Shown one piece after another: positions 12,200-44,019 of a stretch of DNA of 64,000 nt. The position numbers and the translations under genes were made by a program. Source of the DNA: a virus; the IMG/VR virus record IMGVR_UViG_3300045738_001221, positions 12,367 to 76,366 of that record. One strand, 5' to 3'. Positions within the stretch are counted from its first letter, which is position 1, and each line of letters starts with the position of its first letter. Below the pieces are notes generated by a model that was given only the letters and a program-made list of their open reading frames with translations, was not told the DNA's origin and did not search any database.

Positions 12200-12472
12200 A
12201 TGACAATAAGTCTGCACGAGATGGGCGAAGGATATATACAGAGTCTTAAATACAGAATAGAACGTAGCCAGCAGGAGGTACAGGAGCTTGTCCAACACCT
12301 TCAAGAGTGCGAAAATACCTTAAGCTTTGAAAAAAGTTCCAATCAATTCACCGAATGCTGCAATGCAGAATCTGATAAATACAATAGCACAGAAATCAAA
12401 GGGGGCGAAACGGCATCGACTGAGCATGTTGAAGAATATAAGCATGGAGTGGTTGATCAAGAGGCCACTTAA
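12200..12472 (+). CDS. hypothetical coiled-coil protein; last 72 nt overlap the tmRNA
   Basis: RBS-like AAGGG before the ATG; helical N-terminal half. Confidence 0.5.
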   Translation: MTISLHEMGEGYIQSLKYRIERSQQEVQELVQHLQECENTLSFEKSSNQFTECCNAESDKYNSTEIKGGETASTEHVEEYKHGVVDQEAT

Positions 12473-12742
12473 AAACTTGATCAAACTAATAATTGCTGAA
12501 AAAGAAATTTTAGCGTTAGCTGCCTAGCAGCGGGGGTCGTGCCAACCCTCTTGCCAAATTGCACCGACTCCGATAATTCGGATAGAGTTCCCCCGCCTTG
12601 AATTAAGCAGGGGTGATAGCAATAATTTGCTTGACTCAGATAACTCTGATAGCCTTGTTCATTGTGCGAATACAATGCACTAATCATGTAGAAAGTATTT
12701 GGATAATGTTACAGGACGCGGGTTCGACTCCCGCCGCCTCCA
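12401..12742 (+). ncRNA. ssrA: tmRNA; tag reading frame 12495-12527 encodes AEKEILALAA*
   Basis: 5' GGGGGCG pairs with 3' CGCCTCC including the G3.U alanine wobble. T-arm GCGGG-TTCGACT-CCCGC. Resume context ATAATT-GCT; tag ends LALAA. 3' end reads ACTA, so CCA is not encoded. Confidence 0.95.
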
Positions 12743-12754
12743 CTAAGGAAAAAC

Positions 12755-19985: not shown

Positions 19986-20306
19986 ATGAAGAGCGCTTTG
20001 CTAGCATTTTTACCTCCGCTGTTAGCAGCCTCCGATGCAATCCCCGGCTTTCAGTGGGGGACCATTTCTGCAACGGCTCTTCTGGGTTGGTATTTGTGGT
20101 ACACAACGAAGGTTGTTTTCCCCCACCAGCGCAAAGAAGTTTCCGAAATGCAAGAAAAGTATGTCGAGCAGCTTACCTCGCAAAGAGGCCACTACGAAGA
20201 CCTCCTAGAGGACTTGCAGGCTCGACATGACGGACGTCACCAGCAAATAGTGGATACTCTTGACAAAATAAGTCAATGCTTAGAAACGAAAAAGAGAAAC
20301 CAGTAG
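19986..20306 (+). CDS. membrane-anchored coiled-coil protein (BhlA/holin-like)
   Basis: Hydrophobic helix ATALLGWYLWY followed by a helical charged tail. Confidence 0.5.
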   Translation: MKSALLAFLPPLLAASDAIPGFQWGTISATALLGWYLWYTTKVVFPHQRKEVSEMQEKYVEQLTSQRGHYEDLLEDLQARHDGRHQQIVDTLDKISQCLETKKRNQ

Positions 20307-20355: not shown

Positions 20356-20529
20356 ATGGTAGATAAGATCAAGGCGATGCTGAAGTCTCGCCGGTTTTGG
20401 GCGGCTGTAGGCAGCGTCCTAGTTGTATGTCTACAGGATACTCTCGGTCTTCCTGAGGGAACGGCCAATACCATTGTTGCCGTTGGCGTCGCATGGATAG
20501 TTGGCGACTCGCTCAGGTCAACAGAATAA
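20356..20529 (+). CDS. small two-TM holin-like protein (57 aa, not in ORF track)
   Basis: AAGGAG RBS; MVDKIKAMLKSRRFWAAVGSVLVVCLQDTLGLPEGTANTIVAVGVAWIVGDSLRSTE; KSRxFW is common in small phage holins. Confidence 0.65.
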   Translation: MVDKIKAMLKSRRFWAAVGSVLVVCLQDTLGLPEGTANTIVAVGVAWIVGDSLRSTE

Positions 20530-20543
20530 AATGGACTTTATAT

Positions 20544-20582
20544 AAAAGAGAGGGGGGGGGATTTTCGTCTCCCCCTTTTTTA
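20544..20582 (+). terminator. intrinsic terminator
   Basis: G-run/C-run hairpin followed by a T-run. Confidence 0.7.
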
Positions 20583-23834: not shown

Positions 23835-25085
23835 ATGCTAGACTTTTATTCAAACAGACGTGACTTTCTAAGGATAGGCAGTATTGGAGCAGGGATGTCC
23901 GCTCTAGGGCTTTCTGATATTGCTATGGGTCAGGAAGAGGCGCAAGAACTTAAAGATAGCTCTGTCGTGTGGGTATGGCTTGGGGGAGGCCCAACACAAT
24001 TTGAAACATTCCACGCCCCAAAGGAAGACAGTGTTCCCTCTGAATACAGATCTGTGGGCGGCGCTTTGGTGGACAAGCCAACCGGAATGGCCTTTGGTTC
24101 TCATTGGCAAAACCTGATTAAGCAGGCCCCCAAGCTGAATGTAGTAGACTCCTTCACTCACGGAGACTCTTCTCACAGGCAGGCTACTCACTGGGTAATG
24201 ACTTCCCACTACAACAAAGAACGAAGTCAAACATCTAACTCTATGTTCCCATCTCATGGGTCTATTGTGTCTGCTGTCTATGGTGCCAACAACCCCAAAA
24301 ACGGAGTTCCTACATATGTTAAACAGGGCAGGATAGAAGGTGAAGATCCAGCGTGGTTGGGCGGAGCATACAAACCCTTCGACCCTTCAAATAAAGACAA
24401 CCTAACCCCCAGAGTAGACATTGAGAGATTTACAAATAGAAATGAACTATTAAAGTCTCTTGCGGGTGTTAATATTCCTAGTCCATCAGCAGACTCTGTT
24501 ACCAAATTCAATCAGCAGGCATTTGATGTAATCCTTGGAACAGCTAAAGACGCATTCAACTTGGACAAAGAAGATACAAAAATGAAGGAGGCTTATGGCG
24601 ACACCCCAATTGGGAAACAACTCCTTCTTGCTCGGCGTCTATGTCAGTTTGGAACAAGGTTTGTTACTATCAATTATGGTGGTTGGGACATGCATGGCAA
24701 CATCGCAAACGCACTTAAGGGAAGAGTTCCCCCTATCGACAAAGCTCTTGCGGCTTTTGTAGAAGACGTGCAGCAAAGAGGTCTTAATGAAAAGATTCTC
24801 TTGATTGTCACTGGTGAATTTGGCCGTACCAAACTTAACGCCAATGCGGGCCGCGATCATTGGCCCTCGATTTCCACAATGCTTATGTCGGGTGGAAGAT
24901 ATGACAGCGGTAGGGTTATAGGGAAGGCCGATAAGTCTTATACTCCATCGGAAAGTCCCTTTGGGCCTATCGATGTAGCTGCTACTATGTTTGATCATTT
25001 TGGCATTAATAAGAATATTCAGAGGGTTGACAATGGGGGTCGTCCAAGATATTTGCTGGAAGGTGAAGCGAAAGTTATTTTATAA
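23835..25085 (+). CDS. DUF1501 family protein with Tat signal
   Basis: RRDFLRIG signal; WLGGGPTQFETF, LLLARRL..G.RFV, GGWDMH, GEFGRT, GRDHWP. Confidence 0.9.
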   Translation: MLDFYSNRRDFLRIGSIGAGMSALGLSDIAMGQEEAQELKDSSVVWVWLGGGPTQFETFHAPKEDSVPSEYRSVGGALVDKPTGMAFGSHWQNLIKQAPKLNVVDSFTHGDSSHRQATHWVMTSHYNKERSQTSNSMFPSHGSIVSAVYGANNPKNGVPTYVKQGRIEGEDPAWLGGAYKPFDPSNKDNLTPRVDIERFTNRNELLKSLAGVNIPSPSADSVTKFNQQAFDVILGTAKDAFNLDKEDTKMKEAYGDTPIGKQLLLARRLCQFGTRFVTINYGGWDMHGNIANALKGRVPPIDKALAAFVEDVQQRGLNEKILLIVTGEFGRTKLNANAGRDHWPSISTMLMSGGRYDSGRVIGKADKSYTPSESPFGPIDVAATMFDHFGINKNIQRVDNGGRPRYLLEGEAKVIL

Positions 25086-25255: not shown

Positions 25256-25467
25256 CAATTATGCTAAGAAAAGCAGCACTTCTGCTTGGTGTGTTTGGCG
25301 TCGGTGCGTGGCTAATGTACTCAGCCCAAAATGGAAATTATGAAAGGCAAGACCTTCTCAAAGGAATAGCCTTGTGGTCACTTATTGGTTCCTTTGGACT
25401 ATACATATGTTCGACGGGATTACTCAAGTTTCATAGTCGAACTGTTGATAGGAAGGATAACCAATGA
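25252..25467 (+). CDS. small membrane protein
   Basis: GGAGG RBS; two hydrophobic segments. Confidence 0.6.
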
Positions 25468-25787
25468 CAATTAAGTTAACAGAATCCGCAGGAGCAGAGG
25501 CTAAGAAATATCTTGAAGATACCGAAGAAAAGTATCTAAGGATTGCCGTGGAGGGCGGTGGATGCTCTGGCTTTCAGTATAATTTAACAGTAGTCGATGA
25601 CTACGATGAAGAAAAAGATACACTGTCTAATCAACATGGCGTAGACGTTATCGTAGACAAGAAAAGCGATCTATACTTAGATGGCACCACCTTAGATTAT
25701 TATACCGACATTTCCAAGCGTGGTTTTATGTTTGACAACCCAAACGCAGTTAAATCCTGTGGTTGCGGAAGCAGTTTTCAGGTATAA
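25464..25787 (+). CDS. iscA: A-type Fe-S cluster carrier (IscA/ErpA/HesB)
   Basis: [38 protein letters not shown]. Confidence 0.95.
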
Positions 25788-25993: not shown

Positions 25994-26017
25994 AAGAAAC
26001 CTAAAAGGAGATAAGTT

Positions 26018-26302
26018 ATGGTTAAACTAGGAGATTGGTTACAAAGAACGGAATGTCCGCTTGCGGGGAAAGCTCCGTTTGACTGACATGAATATTCTAT
26101 CGCACAGGTTGTGCGTATTGACAAGGAGTATGTTGAGGTCAACTTTGCTTGTAACTGCATGACCTTCGACAGTAGTAATACAAAAATGTGGTATCATGGA
26201 GAATATAAGCCCATCGACGACGAATCTTATGTAACACATAAGAAATCCCACGATAGTTGCTGCCTATTTGATAAAGAATTAGAGATTGAATATGCAGCGT
26301 AG
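26018..26302 (+). CDS. candidate selenoprotein, 94 aa, in-frame TGA (Sec?) at codon 23 (26084-26086)
   Basis: AAAAGGAG RBS and ATG 26018, in frame with track ORF 26111..26302 except for one TGA; SECIS-like hairpin follows. Confidence 0.65.
26098..26117 (+). promoter_or_regulatory. bacterial SECIS-like stem-loop
   Basis: TA-(T bulge)-CGCACA-GGT-TGTGCG-TA starts 11 nt after the TGA; G-first GGU apical loop and bulged U as in E. coli fdhF SECIS. Confidence 0.65.
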
Positions 26303-27512
26303 AAATTTTATCAAGCACTTATCCTTTCTTCCAGCTATACCCTTGGTGGAATCCATACGCGCCAACCAGAAGGATATAAAGAAGAGGGGTAAGTCTGCTA
26401 TTCTTTTATGGATGGGAGGTGGTCCATCTAGTATGGATATATGGGACCTGAAGCCGAGAGCCCCTACTGGGGGGCCATTCAGACCTATTTCAACTTCTGG
26501 AGACTTACAAATTTGTGAGCACATGCCCCACATGGCAAAGCAGATGCATAACATGGCCGTCATTAGGTCCATGAGTACTTCTGAGGCCGACCACACTAGG
26601 GGCAGCTACTACATGCACACAGGCTACAAGCCCAACCCCACCATGGAGCACCCAAGCTACGGAGCTGTAGTATCGCATGAACTAAAGCCGGAGAACTTAA
26701 GCATACCCCCCTTTATATCAGTGGGCGGCAATAGTCTCGGTGGGGGCTTTTTGGGTGTTCGACATGCCCCCTTTGTGGTAAATAGCGACGGTCGCATCAG
26801 AAACCTTAACATGAAGGTAGATGCTCGTTTTCATCAAAGAGCATTTGCATTAGATGTCCTTGAAGATAACTTTATTAACCAGAACAGAGGGTCTATGGCA
26901 AAAGACCATAGAGATATTCTGAAACAAACCTTTGAGGTTCTTACGAGTGAACAAATGAATGCCCTAAAGGTGGCAGAAGAGCCAGAAAACGTTAAGGAGA
27001 GGTACGGTGACAATAGCTTTGGCAAGGGATGCCTGATGGCAAGAAGGCTTGTTGAGGCGGGTGTTCCGTTTGTTGAAGTAAGTCTAGGGGGATGGGATAA
27101 TCATCAGAATATTTTCCCAACTTTAAAGGACACGAAGCTTCCAATGCTAGACCAAGGCATGAGCGCCCTTATTGAAGACCTTGAACAAAGGGGCCTTCTG
27201 CAAGACACTGTTATTATTTGGATGGGAGAGTTCAGTAGAACCCCTCGCATCAATGGTAATGCCGGTAGGGATCACTGGGCCCGAAGCTGGAGCCTTGCTG
27301 TGGGGGGCGGTGGAATGAATACTGGCATTGCAATTGGAAAAAGCAATGAAGATGGAACGAAGGTAGAAACGACACCATATATGTCACAAGATATTATGGC
27401 TTCCGTATGCAAGGCCCTCGGAATACCCCTAAGCACAACCTTTACTAGTAAGAATGGTAGACCCATGAAGATAGCTAATTCAGGTAAAATTATTGGAGAT
27501 TTATTTTCATGA
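26292..27512 (+). CDS. DUF1501 family protein with Tat signal (second paralog)
   Basis: MQRRNFIK signal; ILLWMGGGPSSMDIWDLKP, CLMARRLVEAGVPFVEV, GWDNH, GEFSRTPRIN..GRDHW. Confidence 0.92.
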   Translation: MQRRNFIKHLSFLPAIPLVESIRANQKDIKKRGKSAILLWMGGGPSSMDIWDLKPRAPTGGPFRPISTSGDLQICEHMPHMAKQMHNMAVIRSMSTSEADHTRGSYYMHTGYKPNPTMEHPSYGAVVSHELKPENLSIPPFISVGGNSLGGGFLGVRHAPFVVNSDGRIRNLNMKVDARFHQRAFALDVLEDNFINQNRGSMAKDHRDILKQTFEVLTSEQMNALKVAEEPENVKERYGDNSFGKGCLMARRLVEAGVPFVEVSLGGWDNHQNIFPTLKDTKLPMLDQGMSALIEDLEQRGLLQDTVIIWMGEFSRTPRINGNAGRDHWARSWSLAVGGGGMNTGIAIGKSNEDGTKVETTPYMSQDIMASVCKALGIPLSTTFTSKNGRPMKIANSGKIIGDLFS

Positions 27513-39238: not shown

Positions 39239-39726
39239 TAGAAATTGAAATAACAAAAGAAATGAAAAAACGGGCTTGGAAGAAGGCACGCGAGATGGGA
39301 GTCATCTACAACTCCATTATGAAGGGAGGGGGCAATATTGCAGGCTTCCTAGGAGAAGAGATTGCAAATTCTCTAATAGAAGGCACAGTAAATAACACCT
39401 ATGACTACGACATAACTTCCAAAAGCGGAATCAAGTATGACGTTAAAACTAAAAGGTGTACATCTGCCCCCAAACCCAACTACGAATGCTCTGTTGCAAA
39501 CTTTAATACCAAACAGAAGTGTGACAGGTACGCATTTGTTAGGGTAGAATTTAAAAGCGGAAGGTGGGGAAGGGCTTGGCTTCTAGGCTGGCTAACTCAC
39601 GAAGAATATTTTGAGAAATCAAAGAAGCTTACTAAAGGACAGATTGACTCATCAAATGGCTTTGTTGTGCGTGCCGATTGTCACAATGTTGCTATTTCGG
39701 AGTTGAGAAAATTTAGGAGAAAGTAA
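39235..39726 (+). CDS. hypothetical protein, possible restriction-fold nuclease
   Basis: GFLGEE, YDYD...DVKTK. Confidence 0.55.
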   Translation: MIEIEITKEMKKRAWKKAREMGVIYNSIMKGGGNIAGFLGEEIANSLIEGTVNNTYDYDITSKSGIKYDVKTKRCTSAPKPNYECSVANFNTKQKCDRYAFVRVEFKSGRWGRAWLLGWLTHEEYFEKSKKLTKGQIDSSNGFVVRADCHNVAISELRKFRRK

Positions 39727-41591
39727 TGAACCTCTACGTTCCTCTTCATGTGCATAGCGAATATTCATTGCTTGACGGCCTTTCGCAAACAAAGCACATT
39801 GCAAAGCGTCTCGAAGAAATTGAAATTGATACTTGCGCACTTACGGATCATGGCACGGTGTCCGGCGCTGTAGACTTTCATAAAACAATATCGAATGGCT
39901 TCAAGCCCATTTTGGGGTGCGAATTTTATCTTTCTGAACAAGAAGCTACCTTAAAAGATCCAACCAATTCCAAACTAATGCATCAGGTTGTTCTTGCGAA
40001 AGACCTAGAGGGATGGAAGAAGCTCTTGTCTATTGTTTCTGAATCCAACAAACCAGAGCACTTTTACAAGAAGCCAAGAATTGGATTTGAAAAATTCCTT
40101 GAGTCTGCGGCAAGTTCAAGAAAAATAGTTTCTTTTAGCGGCCACCTAGGATCTCATCTCGCAAACGTTGTTTCGGATAACCCGAACTGGAAAAAGGATG
40201 GCATCCGAGAAGCACAGAGGCTTCAGGAGGCATTTGGAAAAGGAAACTTCTATATAGAAATTCAGCTTATTGATTCTTTGATAAACGAAAAAGCAAAAGA
40301 AGTGGGCGAAAAACTTCGTGAAATTTCTATCGCAACCGGAATACCCTCTGTGGCAACGCCAGACGCACACTATTGCCGCCGAGAAGACGCGCACGATCAG
40401 CGAGTGCTTCTTTGTACCGCCATGAGAAAAAGCATTGGACAGATTCAGAGTGAAATCAAACAGGGGAAGTCAAAAGTAATGAGTTCGTTCTTCGAGTCAA
40501 ACAATTATCATATCCCAACCTATGATGATATGAAACAATTTCACTCAGATGAAGAACTCGATGCCACTTTGGAAATAGCAAACATGTGTTCTGTTTACGA
40601 TATACTCGGACCCCCCAACCCCCCTACCTTTGACTGCCCCGGAGGCATATCCCCCAACGATTACCTTCGCCACCTGTGCCGTGAGGGGTGGGCGGAAAAA
40701 ATGGAGCACATAGACAAAGACCATGACATGTTTGATGAGTATGGCAAGAGAGTTAATAAAGAAATCGAGATTTTCACAGAAACAAACCTATCGAGCTACT
40801 TTTTAATCGTTAGAGATATCTTGCGATATGCCGACTCAAAGGGCTATCTTACAGGCCCCGGTCGTGGAAGCGCAGCGGGATGTATTGTATCATATCTCAT
40901 GGACATAACCAAGATTGACCCCGTTCGCTATAATTTAATCTTTGAAAGGTTCTACAATGCCGGAAGAAATTCAGGAAACCGAATATCTATGCCTGACATT
41001 GATATAGATGTTCCTAAGTGCGGTAGGTCAGATATAATTGAATATATCAGAACGAAATACGGCAAAGACAATGTTGCTCAAATCGTTACATTTCAAACGC
41101 TAAAGGGTCGCGCGGCACTCAAAAGGGTCATGGCAGCCCGTGGAAATATCGGCTTTGATGAACAAAATTCTATAACATCCCACTTACTAGATGAATCCAA
41201 AATCGTAGATGAATTACAAGACATGAAAGACGAGCTAGGAACATCCTCTGTTATCCTTTGGGCCCTTGAGAACAGGAGCGACAAGCTGAGTGATTGGTGC
41301 TATATTGATGATGATGGAAATTTGCAGGGACGCTTTGCTAAAATTTTTGAGCAGGCTATTCGCCTCGAAGACACAAAGATCATTCAGTCTAAGCACGCGG
41401 CGGGAGTCGTAGTTTCCCCTCAGCCAATCTCCGAAGTGTGTCCTATGGTTTTAGACCGCGAGGAAAAAGGCTTACTGGCAGGCTTTGAGGGCCCCAGTTG
41501 TGAAGATGTAGGTCTTTTAAAGCTAGATGTCTTAGGAATTAAGATGCTAGATAAGATCATGGAAGTTCCCAATATTTTAATGGGGGCATAG
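39726..41591 (+). CDS. dnaE: DNA polymerase III alpha, N-terminal part (PHP + palm/thumb)
   Basis: HVHSEYSLLDG, TDHG, GRGSAAG, LIFERF, MPDIDID, SKHAAGVV, GLLKLDVLG, then stop. Confidence 0.95.
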   Translation: MNLYVPLHVHSEYSLLDGLSQTKHIAKRLEEIEIDTCALTDHGTVSGAVDFHKTISNGFKPILGCEFYLSEQEATLKDPTNSKLMHQVVLAKDLEGWKKLLSIVSESNKPEHFYKKPRIGFEKFLESAASSRKIVSFSGHLGSHLANVVSDNPNWKKDGIREAQRLQEAFGKGNFYIEIQLIDSLINEKAKEVGEKLREISIATGIPSVATPDAHYCRREDAHDQRVLLCTAMRKSIGQIQSEIKQGKSKVMSSFFESNNYHIPTYDDMKQFHSDEELDATLEIANMCSVYDILGPPNPPTFDCPGGISPNDYLRHLCREGWAEKMEHIDKDHDMFDEYGKRVNKEIEIFTETNLSSYFLIVRDILRYADSKGYLTGPGRGSAAGCIVSYLMDITKIDPVRYNLIFERFYNAGRNSGNRISMPDIDIDVPKCGRSDIIEYIRTKYGKDNVAQIVTFQTLKGRAALKRVMAARGNIGFDEQNSITSHLLDESKIVDELQDMKDELGTSSVILWALENRSDKLSDWCYIDDDGNLQGRFAKIFEQAIRLEDTKIIQSKHAAGVVVSPQPISEVCPMVLDREEKGLLAGFEGPSCEDVGLLKLDVLGIKMLDKIMEVPNILMGA

Positions 41592-41716: not shown

Positions 41717-42388
41717 GTGAACAATAGATGGATTATAGTATTCGACTGGGAAACCGATAGCCCAAATCCCCAAACATGCAATCCCGTTGAACTTGCTGCC
41801 GTACCGGTAGACCCCAGAACGCTAGAAATAAAAAAGGATCAGGCGTTCAGGGCGACAATACGACCAGACGGAATCGACAGCGAGGAGTATTTCACAAAGG
41901 AGCGTCAGGACACAATTGCGTGGCACTCTAAACAGCGAGGGGTCAAGACAGAGGAAATTGTCAAGGGCTGGAAAGCGGGGCAAAGCGAGAAGGTGGTGTG
42001 GAAAAATTTCTGTAACTATTGTGCTAAATATGAAGTTGACAAAAAGGCCGGTCAGTGGTATACCGAGCCAATTCCTTCTGGCTATAACATCATAGGGTTT
42101 GACCTTGTCATTGCCAATAGGCTCGCTGAAAAATACTCAACAAAATCCCCCTTCTCGAAAGTAACTAAAATTGATATGATGGACATTTTATTTATGTGGT
42201 TCGAGAATTTAGATGAGCCGAGTAGCATGAAGCTCGATGCTTTTCGCAAGTTCTTTGGAATGGAAGCTGCCCAAGCACATGAAGCCCTGTCGGACGCCCT
42301 TGATGAGGCCGAGCTTATGGTTAAGTTCATGAAGTTTCATAGGCGGCAATCTACAGTGGAAAAATTTAAAGGGGCTTTTGCTAGATGA
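41717..42388 (+). CDS. DEDDh 3'-5' exonuclease (DnaQ/epsilon-like)
   Basis: ExoI VFDWET, ExoII GYNIIGFD, ExoIII AHEALSDA. Confidence 0.9.
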   Translation: MNNRWIIVFDWETDSPNPQTCNPVELAAVPVDPRTLEIKKDQAFRATIRPDGIDSEEYFTKERQDTIAWHSKQRGVKTEEIVKGWKAGQSEKVVWKNFCNYCAKYEVDKKAGQWYTEPIPSGYNIIGFDLVIANRLAEKYSTKSPFSKVTKIDMMDILFMWFENLDEPSSMKLDAFRKFFGMEAAQAHEALSDALDEAELMVKFMKFHRRQSTVEKFKGAFAR

Positions 42389-44019
42389 AAAAATTTGCCT
42401 GCGGCTGTGAGTTCGAGGAAGTCAGCGACGGAATCATTTTCAAACCAAAAATTACAGAGATCACCCTTGAGTGTTCAGCTACTTGGGATTTAATTTGCGA
42501 AGGAAACACAAAGGGTGTTTTTCAGTTAGAATCTCAGCTTGGCAGGTCTCTTGCAAAACAAACAAAGCCAAAGAGCATAGAGGAGCTATCGGATCTTATT
42601 GCTATCATGCGTCCGGGGTGCTTGGAGGCGATGGTCAAGGGAAAGAGCCTGACCATGCACTATATTGACCGCAAACATCATCGTGAACCACTTGAATATC
42701 TGCACGAATCTCTTGAGCCAATACTAAAAAGCACGTATGGAATTTTAGTATATCAAGAGCAGGCAATTCTTATAGCCACAGAGATTGCTGGATTCGATCT
42801 CCAAGAGGCCGACATCCTCCGCAAAGCCATCGGAAAGAAAAAGGCAGACGTTATGGCAACGGTAAAGAAGTCTTTCCTAAAGAAGTCGGTTGATAAAGGG
42901 GTCGTTACTAGAGAGCAGTCGGAGGAGATATTTAGCTGGATAGAAAAATCCCAAAGATACTCCTTCAATAAATCACACGCAATTAGTTATGCTCATAACT
43001 CCTATCTAACCGCCTACACAAAGGCACATTTTCCACATGAGTTTTTTACCTCATACCTAAAGCATGCCGTTGGAAAACCCGACACATTTTGGGAAGTACA
43101 TGAACTCGTAAACAATGCCAAAATCATGGGCATTCAAGTCATGCCGCCCAACATCATTCATATGAATGAAGAGTTTAAGCTGATTGGCAAAAACCCAACC
43201 TATGGAATGACAAATGTAAAAAATGTAGGGTCCTCTGTTTTCAAGAAGATGGTAAACCATATCAAAGATAATAATATAAACCTGAGTGAGTGTGACTGGG
43301 ATTGCTTTCTAATTCTTATATCTCCATTTGTAAACAAAAAGGCTTTTGAGTCCCTGATCTTGGCGGGTGTATTTGATTGCTTTAAAATGCCTCGCTCCAA
43401 GATGCAGCATCATTTCAATTTAATTAAAGAGTTTACCAAAAGAGAAATAGAATGGCTACGTCTCTATAAAGAAAAAAATGACAAAGCCACTGCCCCAGAA
43501 GCAATCGGACGCATGATAGAAGAGTCAAGGGTCAAGAGCAAGAAGCGTCCCATCTTTAGGCAGGACAGAATATCTATAATCGAAGATCTGCTGGCGACTT
43601 ACAATAATCCCGGATATGAACTATATGATTCCCCCTCTTGGACCTCGAAGATAGAAGAAGAGCTTTTAGGGATCTCGTTGACATGCAACAAGGTAGACGA
43701 ATACGATACCAGCAAGTCTAACTGTTCATGTAAAGAGTTTATAGATGGATTTAACTCAAAGGGCGGCATAGTTTTAGCAGTTAAGATAGACTCAGTGAGA
43801 GAGTGGAAAATCAAAAAGGGAAGGTCCAAGGGTATGACAATGGGATTTGTCACAGTTAGTGACACAAGTTGCTCTCTTGATAACGTAACAGCCTTTTCTG
43901 ATGAGTGGGAAAAGTATAAAAAGGTCCTGCACGAAGGCAATACCGTTCTCCTGAGGGGAATGAAAGACAAAAATAGAGGAAGTTTTTTGATAAAAAAGGT
44001 AGAGCAACTAACAAGTTAG
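42385..44019 (+). CDS. dnaE: DNA polymerase III alpha, C-terminal part (fingers, HhH, OB)
   Basis: GVFQLES, RPG, TYGILVYQEQ, ADILRKAIGKK, YSFNKSHA, KAHFPHEF, E.ELLG, MGFVTVSD. Confidence 0.95.
   Translation: MKKFACGCEFEEVSDGIIFKPKITEITLECSATWDLICEGNTKGVFQLESQLGRSLAKQTKPKSIEELSDLIAIMRPGCLEAMVKGKSLTMHYIDRKHHREPLEYLHESLEPILKSTYGILVYQEQAILIATEIAGFDLQEADILRKAIGKKKADVMATVKKSFLKKSVDKGVVTREQSEEIFSWIEKSQRYSFNKSHAISYAHNSYLTAYTKAHFPHEFFTSYLKHAVGKPDTFWEVHELVNNAKIMGIQVMPPNIIHMNEEFKLIGKNPTYGMTNVKNVGSSVFKKMVNHIKDNNINLSECDWDCFLILISPFVNKKAFESLILAGVFDCFKMPRSKMQHHFNLIKEFTKREIEWLRLYKEKNDKATAPEAIGRMIEESRVKSKKRPIFRQDRISIIEDLLATYNNPGYELYDSPSWTSKIEEELLGISLTCNKVDEYDTSKSNCSCKEFIDGFNSKGGIVLAVKIDSVREWKIKKGRSKGMTMGFVTVSDTSCSLDNVTAFSDEWEKYKKVLHEGNTVLLRGMKDKNRGSFLIKKVEQLTS

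Follow-up and report, generated by a model that had tools for sequence, protein, structure and literature searches.

Can a bacteriophage gene carry a selenocysteine (Sec) codon and leave its decoding to the host? The question is raised by a short gene on the plus strand (26018..26302) of the window analyzed here, a 64,000-nucleotide stretch (positions 12,367 to 76,366) of the 76-kb IMG/VR virus record IMGVR_UViG_3300045738_001221, whose completeness is about 50%. The window contains phage replication genes, and its source is an uncultured marine phage whose hosts are probably planctomycete bacteria. In frame within the gene lies a UGA codon, followed at a short distance by a small hairpin that resembles a bacterial Sec insertion sequence (SECIS). 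A preliminary description of the locus, made from the letters alone, had read this arrangement as a small selenoprotein gene that borrows the Sec machinery of its host. Our comparative analysis supports that reading, and none of the refutation tests that were run went against it. The locus is very probably a phage-encoded selenoprotein gene, whose UGA the SelB and tRNA-Sec of the host would decode with the help of a SECIS element that mimics those of the host itself.

An invariant in-frame UGA

Direct reading of the window bears out the gene architecture first described. A Shine-Dalgarno-like AAAAGGAG (26003..26010, plus strand) stands 7 nt upstream of an ATG at 26018, and GGAG-type motifs precede the ATG in most related loci. 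From this start the frame runs through 94 codons to a TAG stop (26300-26302), crossing the UGA at 26084..26086, the proposed Sec codon; reading through it yields a 94-amino-acid translation with Sec as residue 23. The mechanical list of open reading frames (ORFs) recovers only the part beyond the UGA, as a 63-amino-acid ORF opening on a GTG (26111..26302), and this GTG, as had been noted, belongs to the stem of the hairpin.

Is the UGA genuine, and is it maintained? We assembled 62 DNA copies of the gene, comprising the window and 61 marine viral or metagenome loci (9 from IMG/VR and 52 metagenomic) with 49-91% amino acid identity. They represent 44 distinct local sequences, and all alignment-based counts given here refer to 43 distinct sequences. 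TGA occupies codon 23 in 62 of the 62 copies. The codon before it is an invariant GAC, and the base on its 3' side is C in all but one of the aligned sequences (42/43). TGG, TGT or TGC was found at the site in none of the 62 copies, though one of the two back-translated search patterns targeted Cys and Trp codons. Contigs from two sequencing runs of different studies (X1 and X2) cover the gene at a depth of about 20 with zero differences. The authenticity of the TGA, which the preliminary description had asked to see confirmed by read mapping, is attested by 62 assemblies and two unrelated runs, without a variant among them.

The pattern of substitution on the two sides of the UGA is that of a single protein. 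Synonymous differences amount to a fraction of 0.44 upstream of it (codons 1-22) and of 0.46 downstream (codons 34-83), and many residues are invariant. Conserved residues combined with varying synonymous sites on both flanks argue that both halves are translated in one frame, and homology is not confined to the part after the TGA. A protein search returned three full-length homologs with Trp at position 23. One of them, P0002, also reads its own terminal TGA as Trp (compare locus L008), which identifies it as a call made under genetic code 4; the other two, P0003 and P0004, are nearly identical to TGA-bearing loci, and the code-4 origin of the Trp has been demonstrated for P0002 only. With no TGG in the DNA, the Trp that database homologs show at this site seems to have been introduced by gene callers.

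A hairpin of the SECIS type and its host counterparts

The UGA is followed by an 11-nt spacer (26087-26097), as originally reported, and then by the hairpin stretch UA-U-CGCACA-GGU-UGUGCG-UA (26098..26117, plus strand). Its core stem pairs 26101-26105 with 26111-26115 and encloses an apical loop A-GGU-U (26106-26110, with the GGU at 26107-26109); below it, 26098 may pair with 26117 and 26099 with 26116, leaving U26100 bulged. The hairpin was first described as an 8-bp stem with a bulged U. The 5-bp core of that description holds across the family, but the two lower pairs and the bulge form in only 26 of the 43 variants. Of the 43, 41 retain the A-U pair that closes the GGU and two have lost it, so that the loop is best written A-GGU-N. 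With all distinct sequences counted, 93% pairing is found for this structure.

We assign the element to the SECIS type on the combined grounds of pair counts, covariation, consensus folding with RNAalifold, synonymous constraint, likeness to a host selD element and a covariance-model hit. Three pairs, numbered here by alignment columns, are altered on both sides: pair 27-41 is C-G in 27 sequences and U-A in 15; pair 30-38 is A-U in 35, G-C in four and G-U in four; and pair 25-42 is A-U in 21, G-C in five and unpaired in 17. These compensatory changes involve 24 cells, the covariation score was reached by none of 500 shuffles, and controls in which the structure was slid along the alignment collapse. 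The covariation that the preliminary description had called for is therefore present; it is real but shallow. RNAalifold predicts this hairpin and nothing else in the alignment, at a consensus value of -7.61. Synonymous differences in codons 27-33, which underlie the hairpin, fall to 0.21, half that of the remaining gene. Some of the compensating changes alter the protein, an Arg to His or Gln replacement being matched by a silent Ile change and a Val to Ala replacement by a silent Ala change. Since pairing is restored at the cost of amino acids, the constraint points to the RNA and not to the protein. A search of Rfam gave no match.

How well does the hairpin agree with known bacterial elements? 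A 2026 review of the prokaryotic selenoproteome defines the bacterial SECIS by an apical loop of 3-9 nt, an upper stem of 4-16 bp, a G in the first two loop positions (N1-G[G|U]-N-N2), a UGA-to-loop distance of 16-37 nt and a free energy of at most -7.5 kcal/mol (PMC13188914). The phage loop, counted either as the 5-nt A-GGU-U or as a 3-nt GGU with an A-U closing pair, fits the N1-G[G|U]-N-N2 pattern; the stem has 5-6 bp and two lower pairs; and the loop lies 19-20 nt from the UGA. Three of the four published criteria thus agree and the energy is borderline, with values of -7.4 kcal/mol for the UGA plus 39 nt (42 nt in all) and -11.5 kcal/mol for a 57-nt segment. The general plan is that of bacterial selenoprotein genes, in which a UGA inside the ORF is followed by a small hairpin with a G[G|U] loop; unlike them, the gene is viral and belongs to a family for which no cellular member or Cys form was found.

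In the fdhF element of Escherichia coli, numbered from the U of the UGA, an 11-nt spacer precedes the helix, U17 is bulged and the loop carries GU at positions 23-24. The phage element shares the 11 nt between UGA and helix base as well as a U17 able to bulge. It differs in having 5 bp above the bulge and a 5-nt loop, in contrast to 4 bp and 4 nt in fdhF, and since its stem is one pair longer the GU falls at positions 25-26. The bulged-U arrangement of the fdhF type is moreover restricted to the 26 phage variants in which the lower pairs form.

A closer counterpart is found in the selD genes of the Pirellulaceae. At least 28 selD matches in this family contain one in-frame TGA and represent Sec forms of the enzyme (loci L129 and L159-L186), with the consensus ...CAG-U-AGKLPxxG(I/T)AQVV(R/Q)xL around the site. 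Their hairpin reads N-GC[A/G]C-AGGU[C/U/A]-GUGC-N. One host gene (L176) carries AUUGCACAGGUUGUGCAA, all 18 nt of which agree with some phage variants, as does the encoded peptide, (I/T)AQVV; two more (L184 and L185) are identical to phage variants over the 15-nt stem-loop core and encode the same pentapeptide. The two groups thus share a near-identical apical hairpin, GC[A/G]C-AGGUN-G[U/C]GC, and the peptide (I/T)AQVV(R/Q) within proteins that are otherwise unrelated. Their placement differs: the selD hairpin lies nine codons past the UGA, after a first small hairpin, and the phage hairpin five codons past it.

A covariance model (R1), for which 17 host selD hairpins were the sole input, was run against both strands of the window with filters off. 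Its top match is the phage hairpin (26101-26115, 16.1 bits, E about 0.05), and the runner-up scored 11.1 bits. Applied to 39 loci, 36 of which are phage loci carrying the gene, the model recovered the same hairpin as its sole match at E <= 1 in 33 loci and found none in the other six. In the host genomes the bare stem-loop pattern is not enriched relative to a reversed control, and after an in-frame TGA it occurs only in selD; the lack of enrichment indicates that the match is specific to selD. Other host selenoprotein genes, for glutathione peroxidases and redoxins, place an AGUU or GUU loop 21-22 nt past the UGA, as in the hairpin CCUGC-AGUU-GCAGG found 22 nt beyond the UGA of the host peroxidase (loci L190, L191 and L193). 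By this measure the short spacing of the phage element is normal for the likely host.

Proposed decoding by the host, alternative readings and precedents

Which host could supply the machinery? The downstream DUF1501 protein shares 59-72% identity with counterparts in Pirellulaceae and other Planctomycetota, from both metagenome-assembled genomes and isolates, and we infer that the host is most likely a marine member of the Pirellulaceae. Of 121 genomes sampled from this family, 71 have a selB above the curated cut-off and 72 a selD; tRNA-Sec and selA were each present in five of five. Sec machinery and selenoproteins have also been described in marine Planctomycetes, including a Rhodopirellula (PMC4807772). 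The transfer-messenger RNA (tmRNA) genes of phages and Pirellulaceae have similar tags: the window encodes a tmRNA (12401-12743, plus strand) with the tag AEKEILALAA, a related record (G002; L065 1080-1526) has AEPSFAIAA, and Pirellulaceae tags include AEENLSLAA, ADNNLALAA and AEGNFSLAA.

On the phage side, tRNA-Sec, selB and selD were absent from the records examined, each of which is 30-52% complete, and this absence indicates that the phage relies on its host. The tRNA genes detected were a tRNA-Arg(tct) in the present record, upstream of the window (G000:C1:2341-2409), and tRNA-Glu, -Asp, -Met and -Arg(tct) in a related 125-kb record (L063 13-240 and 1338-1410); none of the phage tRNAs found has a UCA anticodon. 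As the idea of borrowed machinery requires, the likely host family has selA, selB, selD and tRNA-Sec, and the phage records examined contributed no component of their own.

In conjunction with the comparison of hairpins, we propose the following model. Ribosomes would start at the ATG at 26018 and, on reaching the UGA at 26084, would encounter the hairpin at 26098-26117, a near copy of the apical SECIS hairpin in the Sec-type selD of the likely hosts. The hairpin would recruit host SelB carrying Sec-tRNA(Sec), selenocysteine would be inserted, and translation would proceed to the 94-amino-acid protein. The residue inserted is probably Sec and not another.

Could an ordinary tRNA read the UGA instead? 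By this account a Trp, Cys or near-cognate Arg tRNA decodes the codon, through leakiness or by program, the hairpin merely stimulates, and the 94-amino-acid product is free of selenium. In E. coli, a C directly after UGA makes for weak termination, and the phage genes keep that context almost throughout; gene callers have placed Trp at the site, and no Cys homolog marks it as a redox Cys/Sec position. The Trp calls, however, are explained by code 4 as set out above, and the hairpin differs from a generic stem in combining the G[G|U] loop and spacing of a bacterial SECIS with near-identity to the selD element of the likely hosts. A one-base change to TGG, TGT or TGC would suffice for ordinary decoding, yet not one of the 62 copies has made it, and we regard this account as improbable. 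It is very improbable, in our estimate, that the UGA is a true stop, releasing a 22-amino-acid peptide, with the hairpin serving as a regulatory element or SelB decoy and the downstream part re-initiated or unmade. Sec insertion is usually inefficient, so some of the short product is to be expected in any case, and the good ribosome-binding site and the conservation of the first 22 codons would suit such a peptide. Against it, codons 24-47 are conserved as protein, with varying synonymous sites and in the same frame as codons 1-22; the stretch from the UGA to Met48 has no conserved start codon, the GTG at 26111 lying in the stem and being replaced by GCG in one clade; and in the AlphaFold model the barrel depends on residues 7-10 for its first strand.

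A change of the code as a whole, with UGA reassigned in the phage or its host (code 4 or 25), would account for those family proteins in databases that were called with TGA as Trp. In the window, TGA terminates 17 of the 73 long ORFs, consistent with its first description as a normal stop in the other genes; the open extensions past those TGAs are short, under table 11 coding sequence makes up 93% of the window, in which no second gene split by a TGA was found. Taken together, these observations exclude a general reassignment for the phage, and those genes of the likely host that were searched have uninterrupted frames in the standard code, which leaves this explanation extremely improbable. 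The chance that the TGA reflects a sequencing error or a recent pseudogene is practically nil, an explanation refuted by its presence in every copy from many samples, by the agreement of the two independent runs at a depth of about 20 and by purifying selection on both halves.

Several points weigh against a selenoprotein gene decoded by the host. The homolog comparison that had been suggested as a check yielded the conserved TGA, conservation on both sides and hairpin covariation, but not a Cys form: no Cys-containing homolog was found in the 61 loci, among 1.84 billion protein representatives, in genome_contigs or in 251 Pirellulaceae genomes. The classical Sec/Cys criterion, which is a usual support and not strictly a defining one, is therefore missing. 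The hairpin is small, its fold in the single sequence is unremarkable (z = -0.42), and taken alone it reaches -7.0 kcal/mol, just short of the -7.5 cut-off. A single sequence gives no signal beyond chance; the signal comes from the comparison, namely the 62/62 TGA and the covariation, and the gene tree traces the compensatory changes to only a handful of independent events. The phage hairpin also lies 12 nt nearer the UGA than the selD hairpin that it resembles. In roughly 40% of the Pirellulaceae genomes sampled, selB was not found, and this family appears as the host through gene similarity only. Finally, the only contig from an RNA run covers the downstream DUF1501 gene and not the selenoprotein gene.

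Are there precedents for a viral selenoprotein? Apart from cells, a few animal viruses are known to make use of selenocysteine insertion. The glutathione peroxidases of poxviruses are virus-encoded selenoproteins (PMC1802603, PMC6769590) and need the Sec machinery of the host, as we propose for the phage protein. They are homologs of host enzymes and use a eukaryotic SECIS, in contrast to the phage-only family and bacterial SelB-type SECIS described here. Predicted tRNA-Sec genes have been noted in huge phages, with no selenoprotein gene reported (PMC10747093). Genome-wide recoding of TGA or TAG in phages likewise turns a stop into a sense codon; here a single site is concerned, decoding would depend on a hairpin, and TGA elsewhere remains a stop. 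No bacteriophage selenoprotein gene was described in the literature searched, including the 2026 review, which never mentions phages or viruses (PMC13188914). What is new here is the combination of a phage-only family with an obligate Sec codon, a likely host group competent for Sec and a SECIS that nearly copies the selD element of that group. The likeness to host selD offers a direct experimental handle. Genes of this kind are either cut short at the TGA by gene callers or given a Trp there, so that counts of viral selenoproteins are probably too low.

The protein, its gene cassette and other features of the window

What might the protein do? Its conserved residues are W7, R10, F21, D22, U23, H24, C45, C47, M48, W58, E62, Y63, H78 and C82. 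Among the 1.84 billion representatives the family has 14 matches, and several of these are truncated calls whose start lies beyond the UGA. No member was found in genome_contigs (185,000 species) or in the phage genomes deposited in INPHARED; viral contigs returned nothing, whether scanned with the single protein or with the distant homolog P0012; and a family hidden Markov model run against the 251 Pirellulaceae genomes detected no real homolog, its two marginal matches having E values of about 1e-4 to 1e-3. Three repeat proteins (P0009, P0013 and P0016) match a short part of the query only, in repeated stretches. By these searches the family appears to be small and known only from phages. 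An ENA protein of 63 amino acids, P0005, matches the family over its last 34 residues (94% identity) and is unrelated in its N-terminal half; a frameshift or recombination may have produced it.

AlphaFold2 models the protein with high scores (pLDDT, the predicted local distance difference test, 92.3; pTM, the predicted template modelling score, 0.82) as five strands and a C-terminal helix. Structure searches return KOW, Tudor, PsaE, NdhS and SH3 domains at Z scores of 5-6.6 and Foldseek E values of 0.013 or above, generic SH3-like matches only. The model and these fold searches agree with the SH3-like barrel first guessed for the protein, and the predicted barrel is a common arrangement that implies no function. 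Six residues, U23, H24, C45, C47, H78 and C82, are invariant or nearly so, and position 74 alternates between His and Cys; together these positions suggest a metal or redox center. As a best guess, held tentatively, the protein may be a cytoplasmic accessory for redox or metal handling that uses this set of residues and serves the neighboring iron-sulfur carrier and exported enzymes.

These neighbors, whose identity Pfam confirms, form a cassette. Upstream lie a DUF1501 gene with a twin-arginine translocation (Tat) signal, the second of the cassette (23835..25085, plus strand; PF07394, E = 9e-62; also supported by synteny), and a gene for an IscA-type iron-sulfur cluster carrier (25464..25787, plus strand; PF01521, E = 2.7e-21), which is found upstream in many related loci. 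Downstream follows another Tat-signal DUF1501 gene, DUF1501b (26286..27512, plus strand; PF07394, E = 3e-104), starting at TTG 26286 or ATG 26292. The two DUF1501 genes of the window are divergent from each other, and in related phages as many as three copies surround the selenoprotein gene, which always stands within a phage DUF1501 cassette, often after IscA. The DUF1501 enzymes are a large orphan family of the Planctomycetes, on which this setting provides a lead.

The start of DUF1501b overlaps the 3' end of the selenoprotein gene, as a DUF1501 start does in most related loci; the two genes may be translationally coupled. The switch between a 22- and a 94-amino-acid product that was first suggested may likewise operate here. 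One may go further and speculate that the UGA and SECIS form a selenium- and SelB-dependent gate, in which read-through of the UGA would, given this overlap of stop and start, couple DUF1501 expression to the Sec capacity of the host, that the product is a Sec-ligated metal or iron-sulfur factor which, with IscA, matures the DUF1501 enzymes, and that the hairpin was captured from host selD. This wider scheme we consider unlikely as it stands. A 151-nt contig from a marine metatranscriptome matches DUF1501b exactly (window positions 26860-27010); it is a weak hint of transcription of that gene, and carry-over of DNA is possible.

Elsewhere in the window, a 57-amino-acid hydrophobic ORF (20356-20529, plus strand) is followed by a hairpin of a G-run and a C-run with a T-run (20548-20575), ahead of a ribonucleotide reductase gene; the hairpin and T-run look like an intrinsic terminator. 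Two weak matches of the selD covariance model (20185-20219 and 20455-20482) fall in the region of this ORF and were set aside, the TGA there being in another frame. The DNA polymerase (phrog_405) is encoded in two ORFs (39726-41591 and 42385-44019, plus strand) that match the N-terminal and C-terminal halves of the profile, and a 223-amino-acid ORF (41717-42388) lies between them; the region may represent a split gene or an inserted mobile element.

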